Below, piece by piece: positions 14,818-62,220 of a stretch of 64,000 nt of DNA. Source of the DNA: Felis catus (taxonomy: Eukaryota); assembly GCF_018350175.1 (NCBI RefSeq), contig NC_058368.1, positions 1,302,001 to 1,366,000 of the forward strand, in the 5' to 3' direction. Each line of letters starts with the position of its first letter. Within the stretch, counting starts at the first letter, position 1. The notes below the pieces were generated by a model. It ran no database searches. It saw only the letters and a list, made by a program, of their open reading frames with translations, and was not told where the DNA came from. The translations under genes and the position numbers were made by a program.

Positions 14818-15041
14818 GGGGCGCCTGGGTGGCTCAGTCGGTTGAGCGTCTGACTTCGGCTCAGGTCAAGATCTCACAGTCCGTGAGTTCGAGCCCCGCG
14901 TCGGGCTCTGTGCTGACAGCTCAGAGCCTGGAGCCTGTTTCAGATGCTGTGTCTCCCTCTCTCTCTGCCCCTCCCCTGTTCATGCTCTGTCTCTCTCTGT
15001 CTCAAAAACAAATAAAACTTTAAAAAAAAATTAAAAAAAAA
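14818..15041 (+). mobile_element. Felid CanSINE
   Basis: Consensus head and tail; TSD AGAACTCAG. Confidence 0.95.
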
Positions 15042-25300: not shown

Positions 25301-26329
25301 ACTGTGCCATTTGGAATATTTTTATGCTTGGAAATAGTAGTTCCTCTCCTGGGAAGGCTGACACTTCATTATACTTCCTGAAATGCACTGTGTGCAACAA
25401 GCACACGCAGTCTCTGTGGCGTGCCTCGTCCACGGCTGCCCTTCCTGTGCTGTTCATAGGGACCCAGCTCTGCCTTGCCCTTGTCTGGGCAACGAGAGCT
25501 TGAAAGCCATCCCGACATTCCATGGCGCAGGTGTCATCGCTCTAGAGTCTCAGCAGCGGACGACGTCCAGGAGCAGATTGCCTGAGACGGGTGGGAAGCA
25601 CGAGGTAGGTGGCCAGCCGTGGAAAAGTGACAGTTTCATAGAGAGTCTGAAGATGATTTAGGGCAGAGGAGTGACAGAAGCAAGGCGCTTCCCCCTCCCA
25701 AGCGAGGGTGTAATCCAGGCAGGGTGTGTGGCAGCCCTGGAGAGGACAAAGGGCTTCTGGGCACAAGAGGCCACCAGCTGCTTTGGGGTTGACACAGGCT
25801 AGTTCAAATCTCCAGGGCTTTTCTCTCTCCTTTTCTGTAGCATGTTGGGTGACTGTGTCCACGGATAGCATAAACAAGTAGAGGGCGAAGAAGAAAAGGG
25901 CAAAAATCTGAGTGTGCGTTTATAAGAAGTCAAGTGTGCGTGGGAGAGATCGAGAAAAGAGAGTTCAGCTAGTAGGTCTAACTAATCCCTGGTGCCTCGT
26001 CATCCGCTGTTACTTCTCTTCCCTTCCCTCTTTCCACCTCTAAGGAAAAACTGATATGTTAGTTAGCGAAAACCCAAAGGAGTCCTTAGACACTTGATGG
26101 TGACTGTCCTGTGCAGAGCCACCCGTGTAGAAGGTACAGGCTTCTGACAACAATGGATCCCAAGGCGCAGGCCCGGACTGTCACTGTCAGTTCCGCTGCC
26201 TCTAATGATCCGAGCAAGTCTCGAGGACGGCCTGCATTCAAGAGGGCACACGGCCTCATCTCTGGTCCACCCCTGTTGCCTATTTCCAGAGCACGTGCTA
26301 ATGCTTGCTTACAGTTTGTAATGCATGCT

Positions 26330-26530
26330 GGGGCACCTGGGTGGCTCAGTCGGTTGGGCGTCCGGCTTCGGCTCGGGTCACGATCTCACGGTTCGTGGGT
26401 TCGAGCCCCGCGTCGGGCTCTGCTGACAACTCAGAGCCTGGAGCCGGCTTCCGATTCTGTGCCTCCCTCTCTCTCAGAGAGAGTGGGACTCTCTGTCTTA
26501 AAAATAAATCAAAACATTAAAAAAAAATTT
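26330..26530 (+). mobile_element. Felid CanSINE with rearranged CT region
   Basis: SINE head; TSD TAATGCATG/TAATGCACG. Confidence 0.92.
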
Positions 26531-28875
26531 ATAATGCACGTTTACACCATTATCTGACACGATCTGCAGGCACTTATAGTCTTCACACAAGAAACCCACA
26601 TCTCCAAGTGGGAAAGAGACTTGCCCCCTGTCCTCTCAGTAGTGACAGTAGGGCCAGAACGTGTCTCCTGACCTCTGGGCTCCATGTGCTATGGATGCAG
26701 CCCTTCAACAAGGCTTCATCCAGCTGGAGTCAATTTGATTTTTGGAAACGTCTGAAAGCTGTTCTTCATCAGGGTTGGCTAAAAAATAAGTGGTTAGGTT
26801 ACCGTTTTGGTCAGCATGAGAGGAGACCATGTTACTTATTCTCTTGCATAACTCATAAGCAGCTCCTGGGTATATACCTGGGGTACGAGGGGGGTCCCCA
26901 CGGGGGGTGTTCAAAGGGGGTGCAGGTTCCTCTGTCTGTGCTGTCCGTCACCCCTCATGAGTATTCTGCCTGGAGGTTTGCACTGGGGCTTTCTGGGGTT
27001 GCCGAGGCCTGCCAATGAACGGGGCTGGTCGGTCTCTGAAAGTCATTTCCAGATCCGCACTGGTAGACCCTGTTGCTACTGTATTGATTTGCTTTCTTCT
27101 CAAACTCCACTTCAGAGGAATGATGGGAAGGAGGGAAGCTTTGAAACGAAAGCCTTTTATCTCTTAAATTTTTCTCTGTAAACGAGTCTCACCAGTTTTC
27201 TTTCATTTCCTTCTTGCCCCTTGGTGCCCGGCTCTCCTAAATTACCGTCTGTCATCTCCACAACAGAAGCAAAGCAGTTCCTTATATGCGATCCATTTAT
27301 TAATAATTTCCATTTCCACGGCTCTCACCGTCTGCAGCACTGCTTCCGCCCCCGGGCCGTGCTCATTTTCTTCCTTACTATTTCACGCACAGAGTTGTAC
27401 GGCCATTCCCGTGATAGCAGTTTTTCACGTGGCCGATTTCAGCTGCTCACTTTTACGGGATCAGTTATTTTCAAACACTTCCTTGGAGCCTCAAGATGAT
27501 TCAGGCGTTTTTCGCAGCACAGCAGTTATTACGTGATTAAACAATGTGTCATTTGTTACTGCCCATGGAGAATGTTTTATAATTAAAGTAAGACTGATGC
27601 ACGACTAGTTGCAGGAGTTGACATTTGGATATGCTGGCAAATGATCACCAGTGTGCCAACCAGTTATTCATTTACTCAGCGACGATTTCTTAAGTTTCTC
27701 CTTTGTCCTAAGCATGAGGGTTATAGTGTTGACAAGAGAGATGAGTCCCACGGAACTCAGTGGTCTGTATTCTGAAATGGTGAGTGGCCACTGCCTGAGA
27801 CCTTGTGGTTTCTTGGAGTTTTCTGACAACAGTGAATACACGTCGGAAGTTGCTTGGTCAAGTGATGAAACCAAGACAATTTAGTGACAAGTTTGATGTT
27901 CTTTGTTCAAAAGAAAACAGCCCGTGGACGGGAGGAGCACGGTGCCTCACAAGCAGCCACGGAGGACTCTGCAATCTTCCTGCGAGGTTTCGAGCAAGAG
28001 TGAGTGCAGAGGAGGCAATGTGGAGATGGGACAGTTGGCTAGGAGGTTGGGGATGTCCTTAGAAGGCCAGCAGTTTCTATTTTCTGGTGGAAGGTAGCGA
28101 GGTCAAGCTGAGCTGGAGGATTGTGATTGGTGTGATTGGTGACTGGTGTTTCCCAAGTGCAAGCCGCCTTAGGTTTAGATTTGTGACTTCGCCGGGGGCA
28201 GCCTCCATTTTGTGGGTTCGGATCCACAAATCAGTGCTACCCACCTTAAGGTGGTGTTAGGAGTCACAACCAGGAATAACACAATTTTAGACAGTCGAAC
28301 GCAACAAATTGTTGGGAATGCCAGGAGTAGGGGAGTAAGAAAGGATCAGTGGGCTTAGGATTCAGCGGCTTAGTTAAATAATGGTGTTTTAAGTGGTCAT
28401 GCAATGAACACTTTATCATGACCGCCATTTCAGCCTAGGCATTCTCTCTTCTGATCCTACAACAGATTGATGACACGGTGGCAGGAGGTGATTGGACATC
28501 GAGGGGACAATCAGCACCAACAGAGTGGTGAAGTCTTTACTCCGTATTGGGATGAGCCACCCACGGGGGCTCGCATTACTCATAGGCATTTATCTCAAAC
28601 TGCCCATTCTCTGGTAGCTTTGTGCTTTCACACATCCTTAGTTTGACTGTAAGTTCCTTATGGACAAGAATCCTTTCTTCTGTATATCTCTCCACTCAAT
28701 GCCTGTAACCATGCCCAACTGCCACGTGGGTTCCACTTGACAGAGGATTTCATCGGTCCTTGGGAAACGTATCATGGAATTGTCTTACACAACCAAAATC
28801 ACCCATAAAGAAGGTCCTTTTGAGATCTTTCTAATAACCATATGCTCTTGGGCAGGTTTCAAAGGTGTAAATCTT

Positions 28876-29111: not shown

Positions 29112-31039
29112 ACAAAGGTGTAAATCTTGTACAATTCTACATGCGTACGGATCAGGATTCTAAGACGTTAATAAGGATATACTGTAATCCTGGAGAAGCT
29201 GATTATCCCAATTTTATAAACAAAGAGAACAAATCTTCCTGACTTTCCCAAAGCCACATGTTTTATAAGTGTATGTAAAAGGGAAAAGCCAGCAAACGGC
29301 TTGGCTCGCTTTAGACAGGTCACTTACGTATTTCAGGTCATTAACCTTTCCTTCCCCTTACATTTTCTTAAATTATTCTCTATCATGAAAACAGCTAAGT
29401 CTTTAAGTCTTCAGAGGCATTGCATTTGAAATACATTATTAAGTCTCCAGAGTCAACAGGTGCCATCAGATGCTATCAGCAGTAATAATACTCTTCTAGG
29501 ACCATCATAGGTGACAACCATGGGTCTTTTCAGCTTGAAGCTTCTATTTACCAGTTCTGTCCCACTGAAGAGCAAAATGCCTGCTGATCATACTGGTAAA
29601 ATGACCTTCTGCTATTTAAATTTATAAGATACAGGTTTTAATTGTATTCTACACTATTTAACTAAATAGTAGTGAAAACATCAACCATTTAAAAATTTTT
29701 ATCAAAACAAAAAAGTTTATAACTTTAAATTTTAGTTTATAACTTTAGTTTATAACTTTAAGTAGAACCGAAAGACTTTCAGTGCAATATTTCAGTCCAC
29801 TGCCCAGCCCCCGTACTTATCCCAGTACTTTGCCCCAGAGGCAACCAGCACCTTCATTTCTGGCCACTCTTCTGAGATTTACCACTATATTTCTAAGCAG
29901 TGTGCTTAATATGCTATATACTGATTTATGGATATTAGACCTGTTGACTTTTTATTCTGCCATTTGAGGGCTTAGTTCTTATGTAATCCCCACCATTCCT
30001 ACCAAAACCTACAACCTTATAACGGAGTCATAACTCCTATTTTGGTGAAATCAATATTGCTTCATTACATGATTTTAAACTACGTACGTAATCCCTTCTG
30101 GACCAAGGTGTGTTCTATGTTTACAGTTTCTTTCTCTTACAATTTCTTCCCCCCACCCCCAGTTCCCCCGCCGGGGCCGTGGAGTAAATAATGATTGTGT
30201 TTCCCTCCGCTTAGCTTTCTATGTGTTTATTGTTCCATTTTTCCCCTGCTCTACCAACCAATCTGTCACATGGCCAGAACTAATTTTTTCCAACTCCCAG
30301 GCACAGCTCTGAACACTCGACCTGTTCCATTTGTTTCTTGGCGTCCTCACCCTTGCCCTGCTCCCATCTGGACTGGGTCCGGCCGGCTGCTGCCCAGCGG
30401 CCAGCCAGGGCCCTCTGCCTTTCCCCCAGGTCCGAGCTTCTGCTCTCTGGGTTCCATGTCTTCTTTCCTGCTGTATGTCCCCATTTGGCTGAAGTGCATC
30501 TTCTAGTAGCTTCCTGAGAAAGAGAACAGGGGGAATACACTTCTGTGTCTTTCTATATAAAAAAAGCTTTATACTCGTCTCGTATGATGTCTTCATACAC
30601 TCGATGTGCCATCCTCTGGCCCTCCCCCTTCCCTTCCCATTTCTTTCTTCTTAGGAGTTTACGCCTTTTTTTCCCCTGTCATTTAATTGGCATGTAACAC
30701 CGGGGCAGAGATGAATGCACATGTTTAGGCTCGTGTTAAGCAGAAGTCTCATAATGTGTGTGTATTTAATGGACTCCTTATTTCAATGCCGGTTCTCATT
30801 ATTTGTGCAGGGTACTGCATTTTGCAGAGTGAGCCCACCTCTGTGCCAGGCCGGCCCTGTTCGGTTGGCACTGTGGTGCACCCCTGAGAGCCGATGAAAT
30901 GGAGAGTCATAGAAGTGAAGTAACTTTCCCCAGACCACACAGTTTAAAGGCCAGAGCTGAGGTTCGAAGGCAAATCTGAATCAAAGACTGCTCCCTTTCT
31001 GCCCACCTGCACCGATAGCCAAAGCCCCAGAGACAAGGC

Positions 31040-31745
31040 CCATCACGGCCCTATATGGATTAGCCCTGGGAGGCGCCGTGGCAGCCGGGGTGACTGAGAT
31101 GGGCACCGCGGAAGAGGGGACGAATGAGGATGGCAAAGATAAACGGGCAGTGTAACTCCAGGCAGAGTGAGTCGCCGGGGCAGGTGGCTGGTGCCCGCTG
31201 GGGTACAGCAGGTAGCAACCTGGGGCGAGATCCAACCGCAGGAAGAAGGGGTTAGAGTCCGAGGCTCCACCCCCGTGACCCTAAGTGACCTTAGGCAACT
31301 TACGTCTCTAAGAATCTGCCTCGCTGCGAAGTGGGGGCCATAACAGTTTCTTCAAAGCGCTATTTGAAGGGTTAAATAATATGTTATATGTGAATGTTCA
31401 CTGTGTTAACTTTAGAGCACTTAATAAATATAAAATATTCCTCTGATCAGCCTAGAAGGATCAATTATGATTATGAAAGGCCTTAAATTCCAACCTGATG
31501 AATCTTCTCATTTTTATAGGCAAAGGAGAAACGGAAAATACGTCTGATGGGGGAGTGGCAGTGTGGCGGATAAAGCGAACCTCTGCTAGGTAAGGTCTGG
31601 GCTTCGGTGTGGGGTGCGGCGGCCCCTGGTCCTGCAAAGGGCGCCGCGGGGAGGCTGGACACGCGCAGGCGGCGCACACTCTCCGCTGAGCGGTGTTTGT
31701 TCTCAGGAGGGAGCCCAGTGGAAAATTTTGAGCTGCGGTCAGAAA
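31040..31745. promoter_or_regulatory. GC/CpG-rich patch (possible regulatory element or gBGC tract) containing a MIR at about 31250-31430
   Basis: Locally dense CpG compared with CpG-poor flanks. Confidence 0.4.
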
Positions 31746-34349
31746 CCATGTGTACGGTCTTGGAAACTGAAGATGTTCCTTTAAAAGAAAAATCACAGTG
31801 CTTTTTAAACTCAAATGACAGCATTGACCATTATCTGCTTTTCTCTCTTGCCAGCTCTAGAGTTTTCTTGGGATGTTATCAGGGCAAGTATCAGAACAAT
31901 GCCCACTTCTGTTTTGTTTTTAACCTGAATTACAAATTACCAATCGGCAGATGTAGGCCAAGCAAGGAGGCTTCTTCTGCATGCTGGACTTTTCCAAAAA
32001 TGTAGAGGCTCGGGGGTTGTTGTTGTTCTTTCTGCTCCCCCACCCCCCTTTTCCCCAGTGGAGGTACTTTTTGTGTTCTGTTTTTGAGGGCTCCTGAAGA
32101 TTGTTTGAGAACTTGACTGCTGGGGCAGACCAGCACTGATGTTTTTTGTTGCCGTTATTTATTCTGCTGAGATTTCTAAAAGAATCAGACGAACAAAAAA
32201 GCTAACCCCTCCAAAACAAACTCCAAAACCAAAACAAAACACACAGACAAACTCACAACTTTCTTACAGTTGCTTCTGAGAGGCAAGATGCTTCTGGTCA
32301 CCATTATATTCTATGTAAAGCTTCAAGTTTTGATAGTGTAGTAAATATAGCCTGTATCTATTTTCGCTGTTGATGTGTTTTTCTCTTGAGAGAGGGAATC
32401 GAGTGAAAATGAACATGGTTGGGGTCCCCTTATCTAGTGTACTTCTCAGGAGTCTGTTGGACTAGGCATCTACTCTTTCCCCACGCTCCCTGAATGTGGT
32501 TCAGCCACTGCCCTTCTCTTTGCTTTCAGAATATCTTGCCCCTGACATATCATTGTGCTTATCGGTGATTTACGATCAACTGCTTTCCACTAACCGGTGG
32601 GCTTCTTGCGGGCAGCATCATGTGCTCGACAGCTTTCTAGCCAAATGCCGAGCAAGGATTGGTGCCCTGCGGGAGGCTGGAATCTATTTAAAATGAGGCC
32701 AGCATCAGCGGTACAAAGGCCACCCTCTGGCAGCCCAGGAAGAATGTGCTGTAATCAACATTCTGGGAAGACTAGACAAGAATGGAGAAGTCACCCACAC
32801 CGGGAGCCCCAGGGAGCTTCGGGTCCCACTCCAGCACCAGGAGCTCATCTATTACACAGCACGGCGATCATAAACCGATTTTTATTCTGGGTGGGCGTGT
32901 GCGAGTTATACTTATCTCTTTCCCTCATCAGATTGTGATTTCCTGAAGGGCACGGGCTACTCCTATTCAACTTTTTATCCCTACATCTAGCACCTAGAAC
33001 TGTGTGATCACTCAGCGGTGACTGAGGTGAAGAGGGGAGGGAAGGAAAAAAGCGAGGACAGGAGAAAGGTCTGGGTGCTTGAGAAAGCCTCTCCTTTGCT
33101 TCAGAGGCTTGTTCTGGGGCTTCTGGATTTTCGGTCCTTGGGGGCAGGCTGCGAGCTCTCACTGGCCCTTGGTGGTTCTTTCCAGGCTCCCCGTCAGCCT
33201 CACAGGGTTGTTGTAAACTGCTCTCGGAAAGGAGTCACAGAGGGAGCCCGTGCTAGGATCACCCGTGCACTGAACACCCAGCTCATCCCAGTGGCTATTT
33301 CAGAGTGGAAGATGGCAAAACGTTTTGATTTCACTTTGTTTAAAAGCAAGTTGTTCCTTTTCCTGACTTTTATATCCCAAGGCTAAGAAACAGTATAAAA
33401 CAACTTTTAAAAATGTATTTCAATGTTATCCATTGTTCACTAAAAGAGGGTCATAAAGGGCACAAGATGAGAGGAGACGCCGGGGCTCATGTGAGTCGCT
33501 CGCGGAACGCATTGGGAGAGCCCTTTCAAAAGATTTGATTTAGGAAGCAGGAAATGATTAAAACCGGATGGCTCTGATGAAAATTAGATTTAAATTTTTC
33601 ATTAAATTTGCATAGTTGGATGTAATTTTACTTACGATCTCCCCTATATTCCCTGCCTACAACATTCAAAACAGGTAAGGCCAGGTGAACACCTGTGCGC
33701 GTATGTATGGGTGTAGGTACGCACACATATTTTTAAATTATCGAGTCCGGATGAGAGTTTTTCTTATGACATACAGATGTACAACAGTGTATCCCCAGAT
33801 ATGTTTAATTCACTTTCATTACCAGCCCATCTCTTTGCCACATAATCGTCACACAGTGGTTCCAACAGGACACCTGAGCGTGGAACGCCGACCCAGCCTT
33901 TAAAACACAAGTTTCGGATTTGGTATTTTAGCAGGTAAAAGTTCAGTTTTTGGTTTTATCCTTAGAAGAGAGTACGTACATAGCATTTACTCCATTTTTG
34001 TAAGGTAAAGACCGATAAATCCCCAAAGGCCTTGGCATTTAGGACAAGGTTAATGCTTTATCCATAAATTTACTCCTTAAACTCTGTGATTCCTTGTATC
34101 CAAGTGAGATACCCTGTTGGCTGGACAATGGCCTATATCTTAAATATGCAGAGACCCTCCCGAGCACACGGAGTGTGAAGGAACCATCGCGAATGGACAA
34201 TTAGAAGTCCTAGCGAGTTTAGCCATCTCTGGGTGTCTAAAATAAGAATGCCAGGGTATGACTGATACCCGGGAGAGCCTCTGGACTTCTCTACGTGATG
34301 ATTAGCCTTCACTTTATGGAGGCGTGACAACAACATAATAATAGCCACC

Positions 34350-34540
34350 GTTTATTTATCTACTCCTGAATGCTTACCATGTGAGGGCGAAAGCCTCGTT
34401 AATTCTTATCTTATTCAGTCCTCACAACAGTCCTGTGAAGTAGGTACTATCATCATCCCATTGTGTAACAAACAAACTGAGGGTTAGAGACGTTAATTAA
34501 CTTGTCCCAGGTCGGACGACTAAAAACGTTTGGGAGCCAT
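34350..34540 (-). mobile_element. MIR
   Basis: CCTCACAACAGTCCTGTGAAGTAGGTACTATCATCATCCCATT..AAACTGAGG core. Confidence 0.8.
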
Positions 34541-35309
34541 TTTTTTGAATAAAATTCTAACAAAGTCTACGTTTTAAACCGTTGTAAAGTCTTCCTGGTA
34601 AGACACACGTCTGTGGGATCCCGTGATTTGTAGTTATTCATTTTGTGTATAGCTTGACGGAGAAAGTATCATTCTCGTTGCCTACACATAAAAGCTTCAA
34701 ACTGATCCTTTAGGAGGATGTGTGATTCCATTTAGTTGTTGATAAATAGAGTCCTGCGTTAGCATGTAACATGGATCTTTTTCCTCGTTTACCTTCTGCT
34801 GAACTTTCTGAGAGACCGTCTCACTCAGAAGAGCTTTGAATCAGTCCCGTTGGTAATGAAATGCGAAAACAAACCTTTGTTTTGGCGGGAACCACGAAGT
34901 CGCGGGCTTCTGCGCTCCTGGTCCGCGTCCGTATCGACGAGGAAACCGAGTTTCACGAGCTGCTGTGGGAGACGGTAAGATTTCCTAACTGAACAAAAAA
35001 TTCTTTTGACTTTATGGACTCGCTCTAACTTGGTGCCCGTGTGGCTACTTAAGTTTAAACTGGAATTCATTAAAATTAAATAAAAATAAAAATCCAGCCC
35101 CTCAGGCCCCCTAGCCGCATTGCGAGTGCCCAGTACCCTCCAGGGGCTGCCATATTGGAAAGCACGGATACGGAATATTTCCAGCCGCGCAGAAAGCTGG
35201 GCTGGACAGAGACGTCTGGATTATTTAGACTCCCGAGCACCAAGTTCCACACTTAGCAAAGACCACTACTTTTTTCACCATGAAAAAGAATTTTTTCCCC
35301 CACAACTAA

Positions 35310-35615
35310 ACAACGTCGAAGTATAGTTACGCACAGGATGACGTTCGTTTTAGGTGTGCGACACGGCGATCTGACAGGTCTGTGTGTCAGGCCGTGTTCG
35401 CCACAAGTGTAGCTGCCATCTGTCGCCACACAACACTACGACGACACCGTCGGCTGTCCTCCCCGTGCCGCACCTCTGATCCCTCCGGCTTCCTCATTCC
35501 GCAAACGGAAGCCTGTGCCTCTACTTCCTCTCACCCGCTTTGCCCATCCCCCCACTCCCTCCCCTCTGGCAACCTCCACTCTGGCCTCCGTACTGATGGA
35601 GCCGACAGCTGCTTC
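35310..35615 (-). mobile_element. LINE-1 3' end (L1MA9/L1_Carn-like), strongly GC-shifted
   Basis: Anchors CCACAAGTGTAGCT.CCATCTGTC, GGAAGCCTGT, CCCTCCCCTCTGGCAACC; partly homologous to the reverse complement of 62031-62195. Confidence 0.8.
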
Positions 35616-36136
35616 CGAAAGTAAGGGTGCCTCGGGATGCGGAAGCCCAAGCGGAACCGCCCATCCGTGGAGTGAGACTACTTTGGGCTCCGCTGCCTGT
35701 GTCTCAGGGCTGCCAGTTGCGTTTCTTTTCATTACCGAGAGGAGAGGACGTTCCGCGTGGTGCCTAGTAAAGCAGCGCAGACAGTAAACAGCAGCTCACA
35801 GGCTGCTCCTGCCAGCCTCTCTCGGGTGTTCCGCCTGGGGGGGGTTACAACACCTGCCACGGCCTGGGTGGGCCAGTGCAGCGCGTCGCCGGCAATCTGC
35901 CCGCACCGCCAGCACCAGGAAAGGTAGGGCATTCCTCTCCCTCTGCCTCTTTGCCGTGCAAACGCTCGTCGACTGTTCACCAAACGTGGGGGACGCTTTC
36001 TCTGGATTTATTCACGATCGCCCCCTGATTCGCCGCCTCTCAACCGTTTCCACGCAGGAATACAAAGTAGGAGTCTGTGATTGGGAAGGACGGCACATGG
36101 CGTGGGGACGCAAGCCCCGCTGAGCCACAGTACCAG

Positions 36137-36137
<1 letters not shown>

Positions 36138-36180
<43 letters not shown>
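36138..36180. repeat. (CA)n microsatellite
   Basis: Directly visible. Confidence 0.97.
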
Positions 36181-36183
<3 letters not shown>

Positions 36184-36346
36184 GCTGCAGCGGCCACGGG
36201 GACCAGCGGCATGTGCCGTCCCTGCTGGAAGTGGCCCAGGGAGGCTCGGGCTGTGTTCCTGAAGCTCCAACACCCCAACTAACACACAGACTTTTCTGTG
36301 AGTGTGAGAACTGTGAATTCACTTTGAATCTTTAGAATTAATTTTA

Positions 36347-36586
36347 GGCGCGCCTGGGTGGCTCAGTGGGTTAAGCCTCCGACTGTAGACTTCAGCTCAG
36401 GTCATGATCCCACCCCTGGTGAGTTGAGCCCCTTAGGGAGCCCCACACAGAGCTCTGAGTCTGGCTCTGGGCTGACGCCTCGGAGCCTGGAGCCTGCTTC
36501 GGATTCTGTGTCTCCCTCTCTCTCTGCCCCTCCCCTGCTCGTGCTCTGTCCTGCTCTCTCAAAAATAAATAAACATTAAAAAAAAA
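36347..36586 (+). mobile_element. Felid CanSINE with internal GAGCCCC duplication/insertion
   Basis: SINE head and tail. Confidence 0.9.
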
Positions 36587-36611
36587 GAAGACATTGAAAA
36601 GAGTAAGGGTG

Positions 36612-36838
36612 GGGGCACCTGTGTGCCTCAGCTCGTTAAGCCTCTGACTTCAGCTCAAGTCATGATCTCTCAGGTCGTGAGTTTAACCCTCCCCCCCCCC
36701 CCCCCATCGGGCTCTGGGCCGACAGCTCAGGGCCTGGAGCCTGCTTCCGATTCTGTGTCTCCCTCTCTCTGCACGCCTCCCCTGATTGCACTCTGTCTCT
36801 CTCTCTCCAAAATATAGAAATAAACATTAAAAAAAAAA
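36612..36838 (+). mobile_element. Felid CanSINE with poly-C expansion, tandem to the previous SINE
   Basis: SINE head and tail. Confidence 0.9.
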
Positions 36839-38039
36839 GTAAACAATCGCAAATCTTTCAAGGGTGTGATGCCTTTGAAGCCTTATGGCACTGAGGAATA
36901 AACTGCCCTGTGGGACCTTTGTCATTAATTCATTAGACAGATGCCAATGGCACAGCTACAGATTTCTATGATTCCCATTCATATAGATTACTTAATCTAT
37001 ATAACTTCCCATAAACTAATATACATACATCTAAGTGAGATGTGGTCTTTTTTTTCATGGTGGAAACCAAGTAGAAAGGTAAGGTATCCAATAACTGTAG
37101 CGCAAAAGTGATTTTTATTAGTTGCCACAACTGGAGGATGAGAGTCCAGTTTTCAGTTTATCCATTTTCTAAAATTTTATTTAGGAAATTTGTTTTTAAA
37201 TTGTATGTAACAAATGTTATTAAGTGGTTAAAGAGGATCAGGTGTTATTGCTTCCTTTTGTGACTGGCAGATGACTGCTTTTCTGAATTTAGTGCTTAGG
37301 CTAAAGAAAAAAGGGTGCTTCCCGTAGGAAAACAGAAAAATGACCGGGTTTGGACACCAAAAAGGATTTAGCTCTTAAACACGAGAGGGGTCTAGAGCCA
37401 TGAAGTCTACATCTAAGCACCCCGTCTCTTTTGAAGGGCTCAGGGTGGTCACATGAGAGGGCTCTGCAAAGACATGTTAGCAGAGAAGGAAGGGATTGAC
37501 GGCATTTTCTACTCTTTGGATTCTTGGGATCCACTCTTCCGATGCATTCCTCCTCGTTGTTTCGTGATAAATGGAACTTCAGAGGGGAGCCGTGTGGGCA
37601 GAGGGACAGAGACACAGGGGAAGAATCCAGCCCATTGTCCAACTGGGTGATATGAATGGTGGGCGGAAGCTGCGGACAGTAGAGCATTCATGAGGAAGGC
37701 ACTGAGTTCTCATTGTGACCCCTTCACCCTGATGCAGAGTTTTCAAAGACGGTTCATTCAATATTCACGCCAGCCTAAAACCAGACTGAAAAAAATGATG
37801 GGATGGTGTCTTTTTTTAGGCAGCTGAAGATGCAGACTATTCCGGATGGCTGCACTGAAAAATCACAGGGAGGGCTTCCTCCCCGATTCACTAGTGAGGA
37901 CTCTCTGGGCTTGGCAAATTCTCTTTGTACCTGGGGTAGCAGCTTCTACGAGACAGCCAGAGGCAGAGGATTCTATTTTCCTGTAACCCTTGGGAAGTAA
38001 TGTCCCGCCTTCGTATCAGAATTGGCCTGGGTCTCCGTG

Positions 38040-39720: not shown

Positions 39721-39946
39721 TTTTAGTGACATTTCAAGTAATAGAGAAGTGCGTAAGTAATAAGTGACAGTTCCCCGGTGACACCACCCCCAATCCCACA
39801 TCCCATGCCTTCCCCCAGCTCTTTCTGTAATCTAACATCCATGTTGTATGTGGATGCATCTAATCTTTTTTTTTTTTTAACATAGGATCACAACCTGTGT
39901 ACCATTCTGCCACGCAACATAGTTTTCTTATTAACAGACTGAATTA

Positions 39947-40167
39947 GGGGCGCTTGGGTGGCTTAGTCAGTTAAGTGTCTGACTCTTGGTTTTGGCTCAG
40001 TTCGTGACCTCACGGTTCATGAGTTTGAGCCTTGCATTAGGCTCTGCCAGCTTGAGATTCTCTCTCTCCCCCTCTCTCTGCCCTTCCCCTGCTCACACAT
40101 GCTCATGTTCCCTCTCCCTCTCTCTCTTCAAATAAATAAATGAACATTAAAATTTTTTTTAAAAAAA
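39947..40167 (+). mobile_element. CanSINE
   Basis: TSD AGACTGAAT. Confidence 0.9.
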
Positions 40168-40924
40168 GACTGAATCAACTGAGCCCTAAGGTATGTATTT
40201 CTCATCCATCCAAGTAAATGAATACCCAGATATTTGATGGGTTATTTGTTGTCATTTTCAATAATTACACAAAGAGAATTTTACTGTATTTTCTAGTTAA
40301 GGGTCTCTAGGAATACAGTGTTCATAGTTTTACCTTATGCTGCCATTTTACTGAATACATTTATTACTTCTAGAATATTTTGGTCAATGCCCTTGGATTC
40401 TTTCCATGTAGTCATGTAATGCACAACTAATAAGGAAGCAAACAGGTCTACATATTTTTAAATTATAAAAAAACTCATAGCATTTCTAGAACTCTGAAAA
40501 AATAGAAAAAGTAAGATTATAGATTATATGTGTCATCTTTCTATTTTAAGAGAAATGAGCTACCATTACATATAATGTACCTTCATTTTAAAATATGCCA
40601 ATCAAGAATAGATTTTGAAGTAATAATGGTTGATATAGTAATGATTTTTCTTTCATTAATAAAATAAGTAGTGTTTTGTGTTCCCAGTGTTATATTAACT
40701 TTTCGTTTCTAGAACAAACCAATCTTTTAATGTGTCCTTATGTTCCTTGTATTGCTATTTTATTTTAAGCTTTAAGGAAATTGGTCTGTTTGGAGTACCT
40801 AACAAATCTGAAGATCAAATTATATTTGTCTTGTGAAAGAAATTTTATGCTACGCCTTCTTTTTGTACACTTTGAAACAGGTAATATAGCAGAAGAAATT
40901 TCTTTTCTTTAAAAAATTTATGAA

Positions 40925-47750: not shown

Positions 47751-48009
47751 GGAGACTAATTCAGAGAATATTTGTATATTTAGTGTTTGTAGATGACATC
47801 CAACAATTTTCCAAAATGGTTGTACCAATTTACTCTTCCAGCAGCCATGTTTGAAAGTTCTTATTGCTTTTCCATCCTGGTAAGTCAGCTGTTTCCTGCT
47901 TTAACCTCTCTGTTGGGCATCAAGTAATATCTCACTGGTGTTAATTTACATTTACTGGTTTCCTCGTACCATTGAGTTCTTTCACAAAAGTTTATGGCCA
48001 CTTTCTTTC

Positions 48010-48238
48010 TTTTTTTTTTTTTTAATTTTTTTTTTCAACGTTTATTTATTTTTGGGACAGAAAGAGACAGAGCATGAACGGGGGAGGGGCAGAGAGAGAG
48101 GGAGACACAGAATCTGAAACAGGCTCCAGGCTCTGAGCCATCAGCCCAGAGCCCGACGCGGGGCTCGAACTCCCGGACTGCGAGATCGTGACCTGGCTGA
48201 AGTCGGACGCTTAACCGACTGCGCCACCCAGGCGCCCC
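48010..48238 (-). mobile_element. Young felid CanSINE
   Basis: Near-identical to 16343-16560 and 28876-29111. Confidence 0.96.
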
Positions 48239-48430
48239 ATTTTCTTGACGTACCTCTTCAAGTTTCTTGTCCATTTTTTAATGGGGTTTTGTTATTTTTC
48301 TTATTTTATTATAGGAGTTCTGGATAGGAGTTCTTTGTAAGTAATTGGTATGACAGATATCTTCTCCCACTCTGTGGTTGGTTTTTTCACTTTCTTAATG
48401 GTGTCTTTTGATGAACCAAAGTTCATCAAA

Positions 48431-57829: not shown

Positions 57830-57835
57830 GTGCTC

Positions 57836-57877
<42 letters not shown>

Positions 57878-57936
57878 TATTAGCATGGCCCCTGCGCAAG
57901 GATGACACGCAAATTCGTGAAGCGTTCCATATTTTT
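57830..57936 (+). pseudogene. RNU6: Full-length U6 snRNA retrocopy (5' part of a chimeric processed pseudogene)
   Basis: GTGCTCGCTTCGGCAGCAC...GAAGCGTTCCATATTTTT matches canonical mammalian U6 except G49>T at 57878. It is followed by an extra 18 nt and an A-rich tail, and flanked by a 13-bp TSD AAAATAAAGTATG (57817-57829, 57979-57991). Confidence 0.97.
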
Positions 57937-61643: not shown

Positions 61644-62015
61644 CATTTGCAACTATGTGGATGGAACTGGAGGGTATTATGCTAAGTGAAATTAGTCAGA
61701 GAAAGACAAAAATCATATGGCCTCACTCATATGACGACTTTCAGAGAAAAAACAGATAAACATAAGGGAAGGGAAACAAAAATAATATAAAAACAGAGAG
61801 GGGGACAAAACAGAAGAGACTCGTAAATATGGAGAACAAACTGAGGGTTGCTGGAGGGGTTGTGGGAGGTGGGATGGGCTAAACGGGTAAGGGACACTAA
61901 GGAATCTACTCCTGAAATCATTGTTGCACCATATGTTAACTAACTTGGATGTAAACTTAAAAAAATTAAAAAATTTTTAAAATAAAATAAAGTAAAAAAA
62001 AAAATGAAATAAAAT
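61644..62015 (+). mobile_element. 5'-truncated felid LINE-1 3' end (L1_Fc-like)
   Basis: GGAATCTACTCCTGAAATCATTGTTGCAC..AACTAACTTGGATGTAAA plus A-rich tail; TSD-like flanks. Confidence 0.88.
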
Positions 62016-62030
62016 AAAATAGATAGTTGT

Positions 62031-62220
62031 AGAAAACTGGTGGTTGCCAGAGGGGAGGTGGGTAGGGGGATGGGTAACATAGGTGAAGGAGATTAAGAAT
62101 ACACATATCATGAGGAGCACTGAGTAATATGTAGAATTGAATCGTTATGCTATACACCTGAAACTGATATAACATTGTATGTTAGTTATACTTGAGAAAA
62201 AAAGAAAGGAGATTAAAAAA
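62031..62220 (+). mobile_element. 5'-truncated carnivore LINE-1 3' end (L1_Carn-like)
   Basis: GGTTGCCAGAGGGGAGGTGGG...TACACCTGAAACT.ATATAACATTGTATGTTA plus A tail. Confidence 0.85.

Follow-up and report, generated by a model that had tools for sequence, protein, structure and literature searches.

Weak-to-strong rewriting of an L1 3′ UTR fossil in a subtelomeric CpG island of Felis catus, probably by episodic GC-biased gene conversion

How does the tail of an old L1 element come to be rich in G, C and CpG? The question is raised by an L1 3′ untranslated region (UTR) that lies in a 64,000-nucleotide stretch of Felis catus DNA (G000:C1:1302001-1366000), here called the window, whose own positions are used throughout. 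A sequence-only reading of the window had taken the many A>G and T>C differences of this fossil as the mark of a recombination hotspot with GC-biased gene conversion (gBGC). We compared the fossil with sister repeat copies from the same genome (2.43 Gb searched), taking the majority among those copies as the ancestral state of each column and writing W for A or T and S for G or C. The fossil differs from the control copies by 61 W>S changes and 14 S>W changes, the excess is the same on both strands, and its position matches that of the window's single large CpG island. Episodic gBGC probably explains it.

An L1 3′ UTR with an excess of W>S changes

The fossil was delimited by its homology to L1 3′ ends.

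35318-35614, minus strand: L1 3′ UTR fossil; GC 0.59; 20 CpG in the scored columns

Both strings quoted in the sequence-only reading are present, the first at 35321-35370 on the plus strand and the second as the reverse complement of 62141-62191, and a recount confirms its CpG numbers exactly, with 20 in 35311-35510 and 1 in 62031-62195. BLAST of 35250-35700 against the window returns only matches of 54 and 64 nt, at 62038-62090 and 61828-61891; because this in-window comparison is too weak, whole-genome copies were used. A genome search with 35300-35620 yielded 948 first-look candidates, and among the 40 that were scored the best non-self matches are 69-75% identical. When a typical copy (L019) served as the query, 7361 candidates appeared, with best matches of 81-85% identity among the 40 scored. 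The family of the fossil is a high-copy interspersed repeat.

Homology ends at a common point in 28 of 29 copies, on the side that matches the low-coordinate end of the fossil, while on the opposite side 24 of the 29 extend 51-700 nt beyond it, to variable lengths. The extensions of copies L059 and L051, on the opposite strand, match residues 1160-1221 (E = 3e-13) and 1066-1125 (E = 6e-19) of human LINE-1 ORF2p (PDB 8uw3), in the C-terminal part of the protein; a Pfam search of nine L1-copy extension pieces gave no match. The fixed common end, the variable other side and ORF2p upstream together identify the fossil as an L1 3′ UTR on the minus strand, in agreement with the alignment that the sequence-only reading had reported. 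It comprises the last ~300 nt of an L1, whose 3′ (poly-A) end falls at about 35310-35318 on the low-coordinate side, where a short T run on the plus strand adjoins it. Beyond ~35615, a comparison of 35600-36340 with the sequence that follows in longer L1 copies revealed no homology, and only (CA)n matched. Among the sister copies, six (L052, L039, L060, L040, L041 and L042) carry a (TG/CA)n run ~160-250 nt past the 3′ UTR block on the ORF2 side, which may be a trait of this L1 family. Two others, L005 and L010 (G000:C27:32.98 Mb and 33.97 Mb), are near-identical L1 fragments in opposite orientation that share private changes and the left flank and, ~1 Mb apart, look like a segmental duplication.

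Two sets of copies were used to score 283 columns of the fossil. The first, 29 copies picked by likeness to the fossil and hence leaning towards it, differs from the fossil in 72 columns (56 W>S, 12 S>W, 1 W>W and 3 S>S). The control set, 30 copies picked by likeness to the typical copy and independent of the fossil, differs in 79 (61 W>S, 14 S>W, 1 W>W and 3 S>S), and switching to it raised the skew from 56:12 to 61:14. A>G and T>C make up 46 of the 72 differences in the 29-copy set and 50 of the 79 in the 30-copy set, so that most differences are of these two kinds, as had been noticed from the sequence; the balanced W>S and S>W counts that the same reading had named as speaking against its proposal are not what was counted. 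The controls themselves carry on average 11.1 W>S (maximum 18), 15.7 S>W, 2.3 W>W and 2.4 S>S changes, and the fossil stands apart from the pooled controls with a Fisher odds ratio of 6.2 (P = 1.8e-11). Excluding the 23 W>S changes located in new CpGs leaves 38:14 against 9.5:15.7 (odds ratio 4.5, P = 6.8e-7).

The excess extends to every kind of W>S change. The 61 comprise 23 A>G, 27 T>C, 5 A>C and 6 T>G, with A>G at 0.32 per A and T>C at 0.30 per T, and the transition:transversion ratio among them, 50:11, resembles that of the pooled controls (263:70, P = 0.73). All W>S types are thus scaled alike, as fixation bias predicts. W>W and S>S changes together number 4 against 4.7 expected, and this normal count argues against general hypermutation or misalignment. 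The changes are spread along the whole fossil, with 38% of W sites changed overall and 28-46% in each of six bins. The GC content of the fossil columns has risen from 0.43 to 0.59, and the implied equilibrium GC is 0.76 for the fossil against 0.35 for the controls (0.67 against 0.31 without CpG-making changes).

Nearly all CpGs of the fossil are new. For 19 of its 20 CpG sites, the 30 controls agree almost entirely on a single state other than CpG (TG, CA, TA or other), without the mixture of TG, CA and CG expected from a decayed ancestral CpG, and the family majority state has no CpG in these columns. Site 35500 alone looks ancestral, with CG in 6 copies, TG in 3 and CA in 20. The other 19 CpGs were newly made, not retained.

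Across 59 further family members, the surplus of W>S over S>W grows with the GC content of the flanks (rho 0.45, P = 3e-4) and with their CpG observed/expected ratio (rho 0.43, P = 6e-4). Weaker W>S skews are seen in L007 (G000:C31:16.82 Mb; 34:9) and L012 (G000:C1:6.26 Mb; 35:19), both scored with the 29-copy set; the flank CpG observed/expected ratio is 0.19 for L007 and 0.43 for L012, which is 6.3 Mb from the start of C1. Since such weaker cases exist, the present locus is the extreme of a continuum.

The CpG island and its spliced minus-strand transcript

The window as a whole has a GC content of 0.417 and a CpG observed/expected ratio of 0.37. It belongs to contig C1 (239.4 Mb), which opens with TTAGGG repeats, and the fossil lies 1.337 Mb from these telomere repeats. 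Islands were scanned for in 200-bp windows (GC >= 0.5, observed/expected >= 0.6, length >= 200), and repeats in and around the island were scored against their own genomic copies; counts below are W>S:S>W.

34748-36238, no strand: CpG island, the largest in the 64-kb window; 1491 bp, GC 0.55, CpG observed/expected 0.83, 94 CpG
34425-34520, no strand: MIR-like repeat core; 11:7 against means of 10.5:9.4 (11 copies, 111 columns); not skewed
35065-35215, no strand: core of an older interspersed repeat; 24:3 against means of 12.3:9.7 (19 copies); skewed
35318-35600, minus strand: scored L1 fossil columns; 61:14 against means of 11.1:15.7 (30 copies); skewed
36138-36184, no strand: (CA)n microsatellite at the right edge of the island, where the contigs of the sequencing runs break
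36347-36590, plus strand: short interspersed nuclear element (SINE); 8:8 against means of about 6:12 (60 copies); within the distribution of copies
36610-36840, plus strand: SINE; 9:16 against means of about 6:12 (60 copies); within the distribution of copies
39911-40200, strand not given: SINE; 9:20 against means of about 7:13 (48 copies); within the distribution of copies

The skew is present from 35065 to 35614, and is absent 0.8 kb to the left, in the MIR-like repeat, and 0.75 kb to the right, in two SINEs; the MIR-like repeat is a weak test, being short and old with few copies. The older repeat is skewed at P = 5e-4 (Fisher), and its S>W count of 3 lies below the mean of 9.7 (Poisson P = 0.013). 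It has 25 genomic matches, itself included; the 19 copies scored were picked for their resemblance to it, so that the test errs on the conservative side. The tract of skew is therefore at most ~1.8 kb long and centred on the island, or older than the SINE insertions, or both. It coincides with the window's one large CpG island, of which the fossil makes up about one fifth. CpG observed/expected stays at 0.8-1.2 across 34500-35500, even where GC is only 0.43, and no repeat homology was found in the island core at 35620-36240. The window also holds 12 further CpG-rich patches of 300-650 bp (for example 2191-2605, 26030-26562, 27209-27528, 30955-31841 and 48009-48337), which may reflect the subtelomeric setting.

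Alignment of four sequencing runs to 33300-36340 places the first known exon of a spliced minus-strand RNA in the fossil.

35335-35577, minus strand: exon 1 (first known), wholly within the L1 fossil and in L1 sense; 5′ end approximate
34875-34962, minus strand: exon 2, 88 nt; acceptor ..TCTCCCACAG/, donor AAG/GTTTGT
33768-33897, minus strand: exon 3, from an X15 contig at 33768-33901; acceptor ..TTTTAAAG/ at 33897 supported
30351-30513, minus strand: alternative second exon, joined to the exon 1 donor; acceptor AG at 30515-30514

The donor of exon 1, CCT/GTGCGT at 35335/35334, lies ~20 nt from the 3′ end of the L1. Contigs of run X15 join 34962 to 35335 and 33896/7 to 34874/5 (977 bases skipped), with CT..AC on the plus strand that reads GT..AG on the minus strand, and all minus-strand splice contexts of exons 1-3 are good. 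Depth in X15 is 24.4 over 35335-35577 and 66 over the 89-nt contig at 34874-34962, against 8.3-8.7 in the flanks. The alternative second exon is supported by an X15 contig that ends at 35334 in 29 loose letters, which match 30484-30512 exactly (0 matches in 100 shuffles); its downstream donor, AAGG/GTGAGG, is predicted from the sequence. Contigs cannot map a transcription start, and the forms seen here start at or above 35577. A further X15 contig at 34215-34903, covering intron 2 and part of exon 2, has a depth of 34, above that of exon 1 at 24; either a retained intron or a long terminal exon used as an alternative may account for it.

Exons 1-3 contain no long open frame. A search of proteins of 87-2000 aa with the 49-aa frame from the alternative exon gave no homologue, a negative that counts as weak evidence. 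No stop-to-stop frame of at least 80 aa in the window (138 in all) reaches the Pfam cut-off, with three weak matches below it, and an Rfam search places no family at the locus. Since it combines no long frame, no homologue and no Pfam or Rfam family, the minus-strand RNA appears to be non-coding. Elsewhere in the window, the Rfam search finds a U6 spliceosomal RNA match at 57830-57936 on the plus strand (114 bits against a gathering threshold of 44, model positions 1-105 of 105), which is a gene or a retro-copy, and a borderline tRNA match at 14823-14907 on the plus strand (32.1 bits against 29), which may be the head of a SINE.

The runs also show variation within the locus. Three bases are missing at 35045 in X15 and one base at 35485 in X15 and X13, as insertion-deletion differences between individuals. 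Two single-nucleotide polymorphisms of X13 fall in the fossil, 35466 T/C and 35504 A/G, at which the reference has the L1 state and the other individual G/C; these two, one of them a CpG site, are too few for an allele-frequency test. Apparent variants at 35415-35429 and 35550-35567, present in all runs at depths of hundreds to thousands, were rejected as alleles because they come from other L1 copies.

Weighing the causes

The explanation that we consider best, and probable, is episodic gBGC in a probably hypomethylated promoter island near a chromosome end. An old L1 3′ UTR and the adjoining older repeat would have come to lie in a zone of ~1.5 kb, probably unmethylated in the germline, that would serve as promoter and first exon of the spliced, apparently non-coding RNA. 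Meiotic recombination would have started in or near this zone, and mismatch repair in heteroduplex DNA would have favoured G/C over A/T alleles. Every W>S type would thereby have been fixed about 4 to 5.5 times more than in other family copies, while W>W and S>S changes, invisible to gene conversion, would have gone on at the normal rate. As the zone would escape CpG methylation, CpGs made from TG and CA would be kept, and about 20 new CpGs would have accumulated. Rather than pressing mildly and steadily, the bias would have acted in strong bursts over part of the life of the element.

It is the combination of a W>S excess of every type, flat W>W and S>S counts, strand symmetry, a sharp spatial limit and a subtelomeric CpG-island promoter that argues for gBGC. 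Low germline methylation, a requirement that the sequence-only reading had not invoked, is the likely reason that the new CpGs survived; its proxy is the high CpG observed/expected ratio together with the 19 surviving new CpGs. For high recombination the proxy is the distance of 1.337 Mb to telomere repeats. The hotspot that we favour is of the promoter type and PRDM9-independent; the position of the fossil, in a CpG island from which a spliced transcript appears to start, makes this class plausible. The gBGC hotspot claimed in the sequence-only reading therefore stands in part: the W>S rewriting is real, strand-symmetric and local, and gBGC is its best explanation, whereas recombination as the cause is something that we infer from this pattern, as are the hypomethylation, the burst-like timing and the class of hotspot.

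Several observations weigh against this explanation. S>W changes are hardly lowered in the L1, at 14 against 15.7 or 0.89x (95% interval 0.49-1.5); they stand at 0.31x in the older repeat and at 0.67x when the two are pooled (95% interval 0.39-1.07). On a background B of 0.87, the B_mean of Felis_catus in the available portion of the PMC11161765 supplement, the W>S excess needs a constant B of 5-8, which predicts S>W at 0.004-0.04x. With S>W barely reduced, a constant bias does not fit, and gBGC fits only as bursts. The burst fits allow a time fraction of up to about 0.5-0.6, with B at ~13-22 for one third of the time or ~9-15 for half of it. The long-lived, persistent hotspot of the sequence-only reading is not borne out, given S>W at 0.89x in the L1 and 0.67x pooled against the predicted 0.04x or less, and unaffected SINEs 0.75 kb away. 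The data also fit a W>S-specific rise in mutation. The published mean for the cat branch is small (1.2-1.3x), which would make the locus an outlier or place most of the change before the felids. The evidence for transcription comes from the contigs of a single run, X15. Its labelling as RNA is a guess, yet the run does show two canonical GT..AG joints, both on one strand. An oligo-dT RNA run, X24, of which ~2% was read, gave no reads of the locus itself; of its 30 reads, 29 lie only partly on the stretch, with loose ends resembling other L1 copies. As cross-mapping in ~2% of a run, they are no evidence on expression either way. Finally, the start of C1 reads TTAGGG on the plus strand (L086, G000:C1:1-300) and not CCCTAA, as expected of a left chromosome end; the assembly may have the terminal piece of C1 the wrong way round, or these could be interstitial repeats.

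Selection for function would offer a different account, in which gains of G/C and CpG were favoured once the L1 tail had joined a promoter and first exon, with a nucleosome-free, unmethylated state, factor sites such as CGGAAG-type motifs, or RNA processing as the benefit. The fossil is indeed the first known exon and carries a splice donor, and W>S changes at positions that are A/T in 27-29 of 29 copies made two GGAA-core motifs, ACGGAAGC at 35505-35512 and CCGGCTTCC at 35485-35493, which may be ETS-type sites. The changes themselves, however, reach 38% of W sites, evenly over 283 columns and into the next repeat, with the transition:transversion ratio of neutral copies, and so even, type-blind and regional a pattern does not resemble site-specific selection. 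The GC peak at transcription starts is, moreover, decaying in apes and rodents according to the sections of PMC11323403 at hand, and we regard selection as unlikely. Distinctly unlikely, in our view, is that fixation was unbiased and that mutation itself was locally biased towards W>S, through error-prone repair synthesis for instance, in germline DNA that was open, transcribed and unmethylated. W>S at 5.5x and S>W at 0.89x in the L1 are exactly what a pure rise in mutation predicts. Such a process is harder to reconcile with the lowered S>W of the older repeat, with W>W and S>S counts that are not raised, and with A:T>G:C and A:T>C:G raised by an equal factor without strand asymmetry; equal scaling and strand symmetry are, to our knowledge, unlike the known transcription-linked or polymerase signatures.

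Hypomethylation alone, under which ordinary CpG-creating T>C and A>G changes survive and CpG decay is switched off with no other bias, would account for the 23 of 61 W>S changes that lie in new CpGs and for the high CpG observed/expected ratio of 34500-35500 at GC down to 0.43. The remaining 38 W>S changes make no CpG and are 4x the control mean of 9.5, and GC has gone from 0.43 to 0.59; as the sole cause hypomethylation is contradicted, and we give it very little probability, while keeping it as a needed co-factor. A source subfamily of L1 already rich in GC and CpG, or ancestral CpGs kept here and lost in other copies, agrees with one site only, 35500. The single non-CpG state at the other 19 sites, and non-self identities that peak at 69-75% in the 40 scored of 948 candidates, make it vanishingly improbable, and an equally CpG-rich source repeat, which the sequence-only reading had set against its own proposal, was not what the controls revealed. 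A-to-I hyper-editing of the L1 RNA by ADAR before it was copied into DNA would explain the many A>G changes (23), but T>C changes are just as common (27, or 0.30 per site, with A>G at 0.32 per site) and an unrelated neighbouring repeat is skewed as well, which leaves editing with next to no probability. Retained ancestral CpGs, a GC-rich subfamily and RNA editing were accordingly rejected on the control states, the identities and the strand symmetry.

Known hotspots and the meaning of the locus

The kind of event proposed here is already in print, including for the cat, as gBGC-enriched CpG islands and PRDM9-independent promoter hotspots. Promoter-like, hypomethylated, PRDM9-independent hotspots, detected by their gBGC signatures, are active beside intact PRDM9 in 39 of 52 placentals (about 75%) and are said to explain the GC-richness of CpG islands (Joseph et al. 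2024, PMC11161765, in the parts of the paper drawn on here). The accessible supplement of that study lists the PRDM9 prediction for Felis_catus as 'complete', with 773 aa and 6 fingers, in line with the statement of the sequence-only reading that cats are reported to retain the gene. At such loci Felis_catus is given a relative recombination rate of 1.22-1.31 and an equilibrium GC of 0.51-0.55 against 0.46 in the flanks (PMC11161765, same parts). The GC peak at transcription starts has been attributed to historic recombination (PMC11323403, in part), a small survey of cat hotspots reports no clear link to GC in the text available (PMC4747544), and the strongest human hotspots reach B > 10 (PMC4510005, in the excerpt used).

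The present locus resembles the PRDM9-independent promoter hotspots (PMC11161765 and, for the dog, PMC4350167, both as far as their available text goes) in having a CpG island at a transcript start and a local peak of equilibrium GC, 0.76 against 0.35. It differs from those of PMC11161765 in that it is known from sequence composition, and in that its effect is far stronger than the cat mean given in the parts of that paper used here, or else mostly older. Default hotspots are described as fairly stable, and the rates here speak instead for bursts. A dense W>S cluster within 1-2 kb also recalls phastBias-type gBGC tracts, among them tracts overlapped by orphan CpG islands (PMC11170920) and those of episodic hotspots (PMC4510005, in the same excerpt), as do the burst-like dynamics, the comparable B and the CpG-island-like product. 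Unlike in those tracts, the ancestral state here comes from paralogous repeat copies and not from an alignment of orthologues, so that no branch can be named.

Comparisons can also be drawn outside hotspot work. HAR1 is a subtelomeric non-coding RNA exon with a burst of changes that are all W>S, for which gBGC and selection are debated. HAR1 shows deep conservation and acquired its changes on a single branch, whereas what was rewritten here is a fossil repeat, and conservation is not part of the case. Accounts of L1 fragments that became exons or promoters of long non-coding RNAs seldom include heavy remodelling of base composition. Like such fragments, the sense L1 3′ UTR supplies a first known exon and a splice donor. 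What is particular to this locus is the strength of the effect at a single site, the clean ancestral state from sister copies, and the fossil as first exon and donor.

Did recombination build the island, or act upon one? The sequence-only reading held that a CpG island had been made out of junk DNA, which goes further than the evidence: the fossil does provide the first known exon and its donor, but it is only about one fifth of the island, whose core lacks repeat homology. Assimilation of the L1 into or beside a pre-existing promoter island fits equally well. We think it rather doubtful that a burst in a PRDM9-bearing felid lineage made CpG-island sequence of two adjacent dead repeats, and that this sequence then escaped methylation and gained a transcription start and a splice donor. 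If that were true, a non-coding RNA would owe its promoter and first exon to recombination acting on repeat DNA, which would have made them anew and not decorated what was already there.

As it stands, with episodic gBGC as the favoured explanation, the locus illustrates and does not extend the genome-wide results (PMC11170920, together with the portions of PMC11161765 and PMC11323403 used here). Its value lies in a clean internal clock, in which dozens of sister copies give the ancestral state of each column; the W>S excess, set beside unchanged neutral classes and nearly unchanged S>W, points to a conversion bias that was burst-like and not steady. It also presents, inside a CpG island, a fossil repeat in the role of first exon and splice donor. 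Should the burst have fallen on the felid branch, this one site would make a strong case for promoter-type hotspot activity in a species whose PRDM9 is intact.

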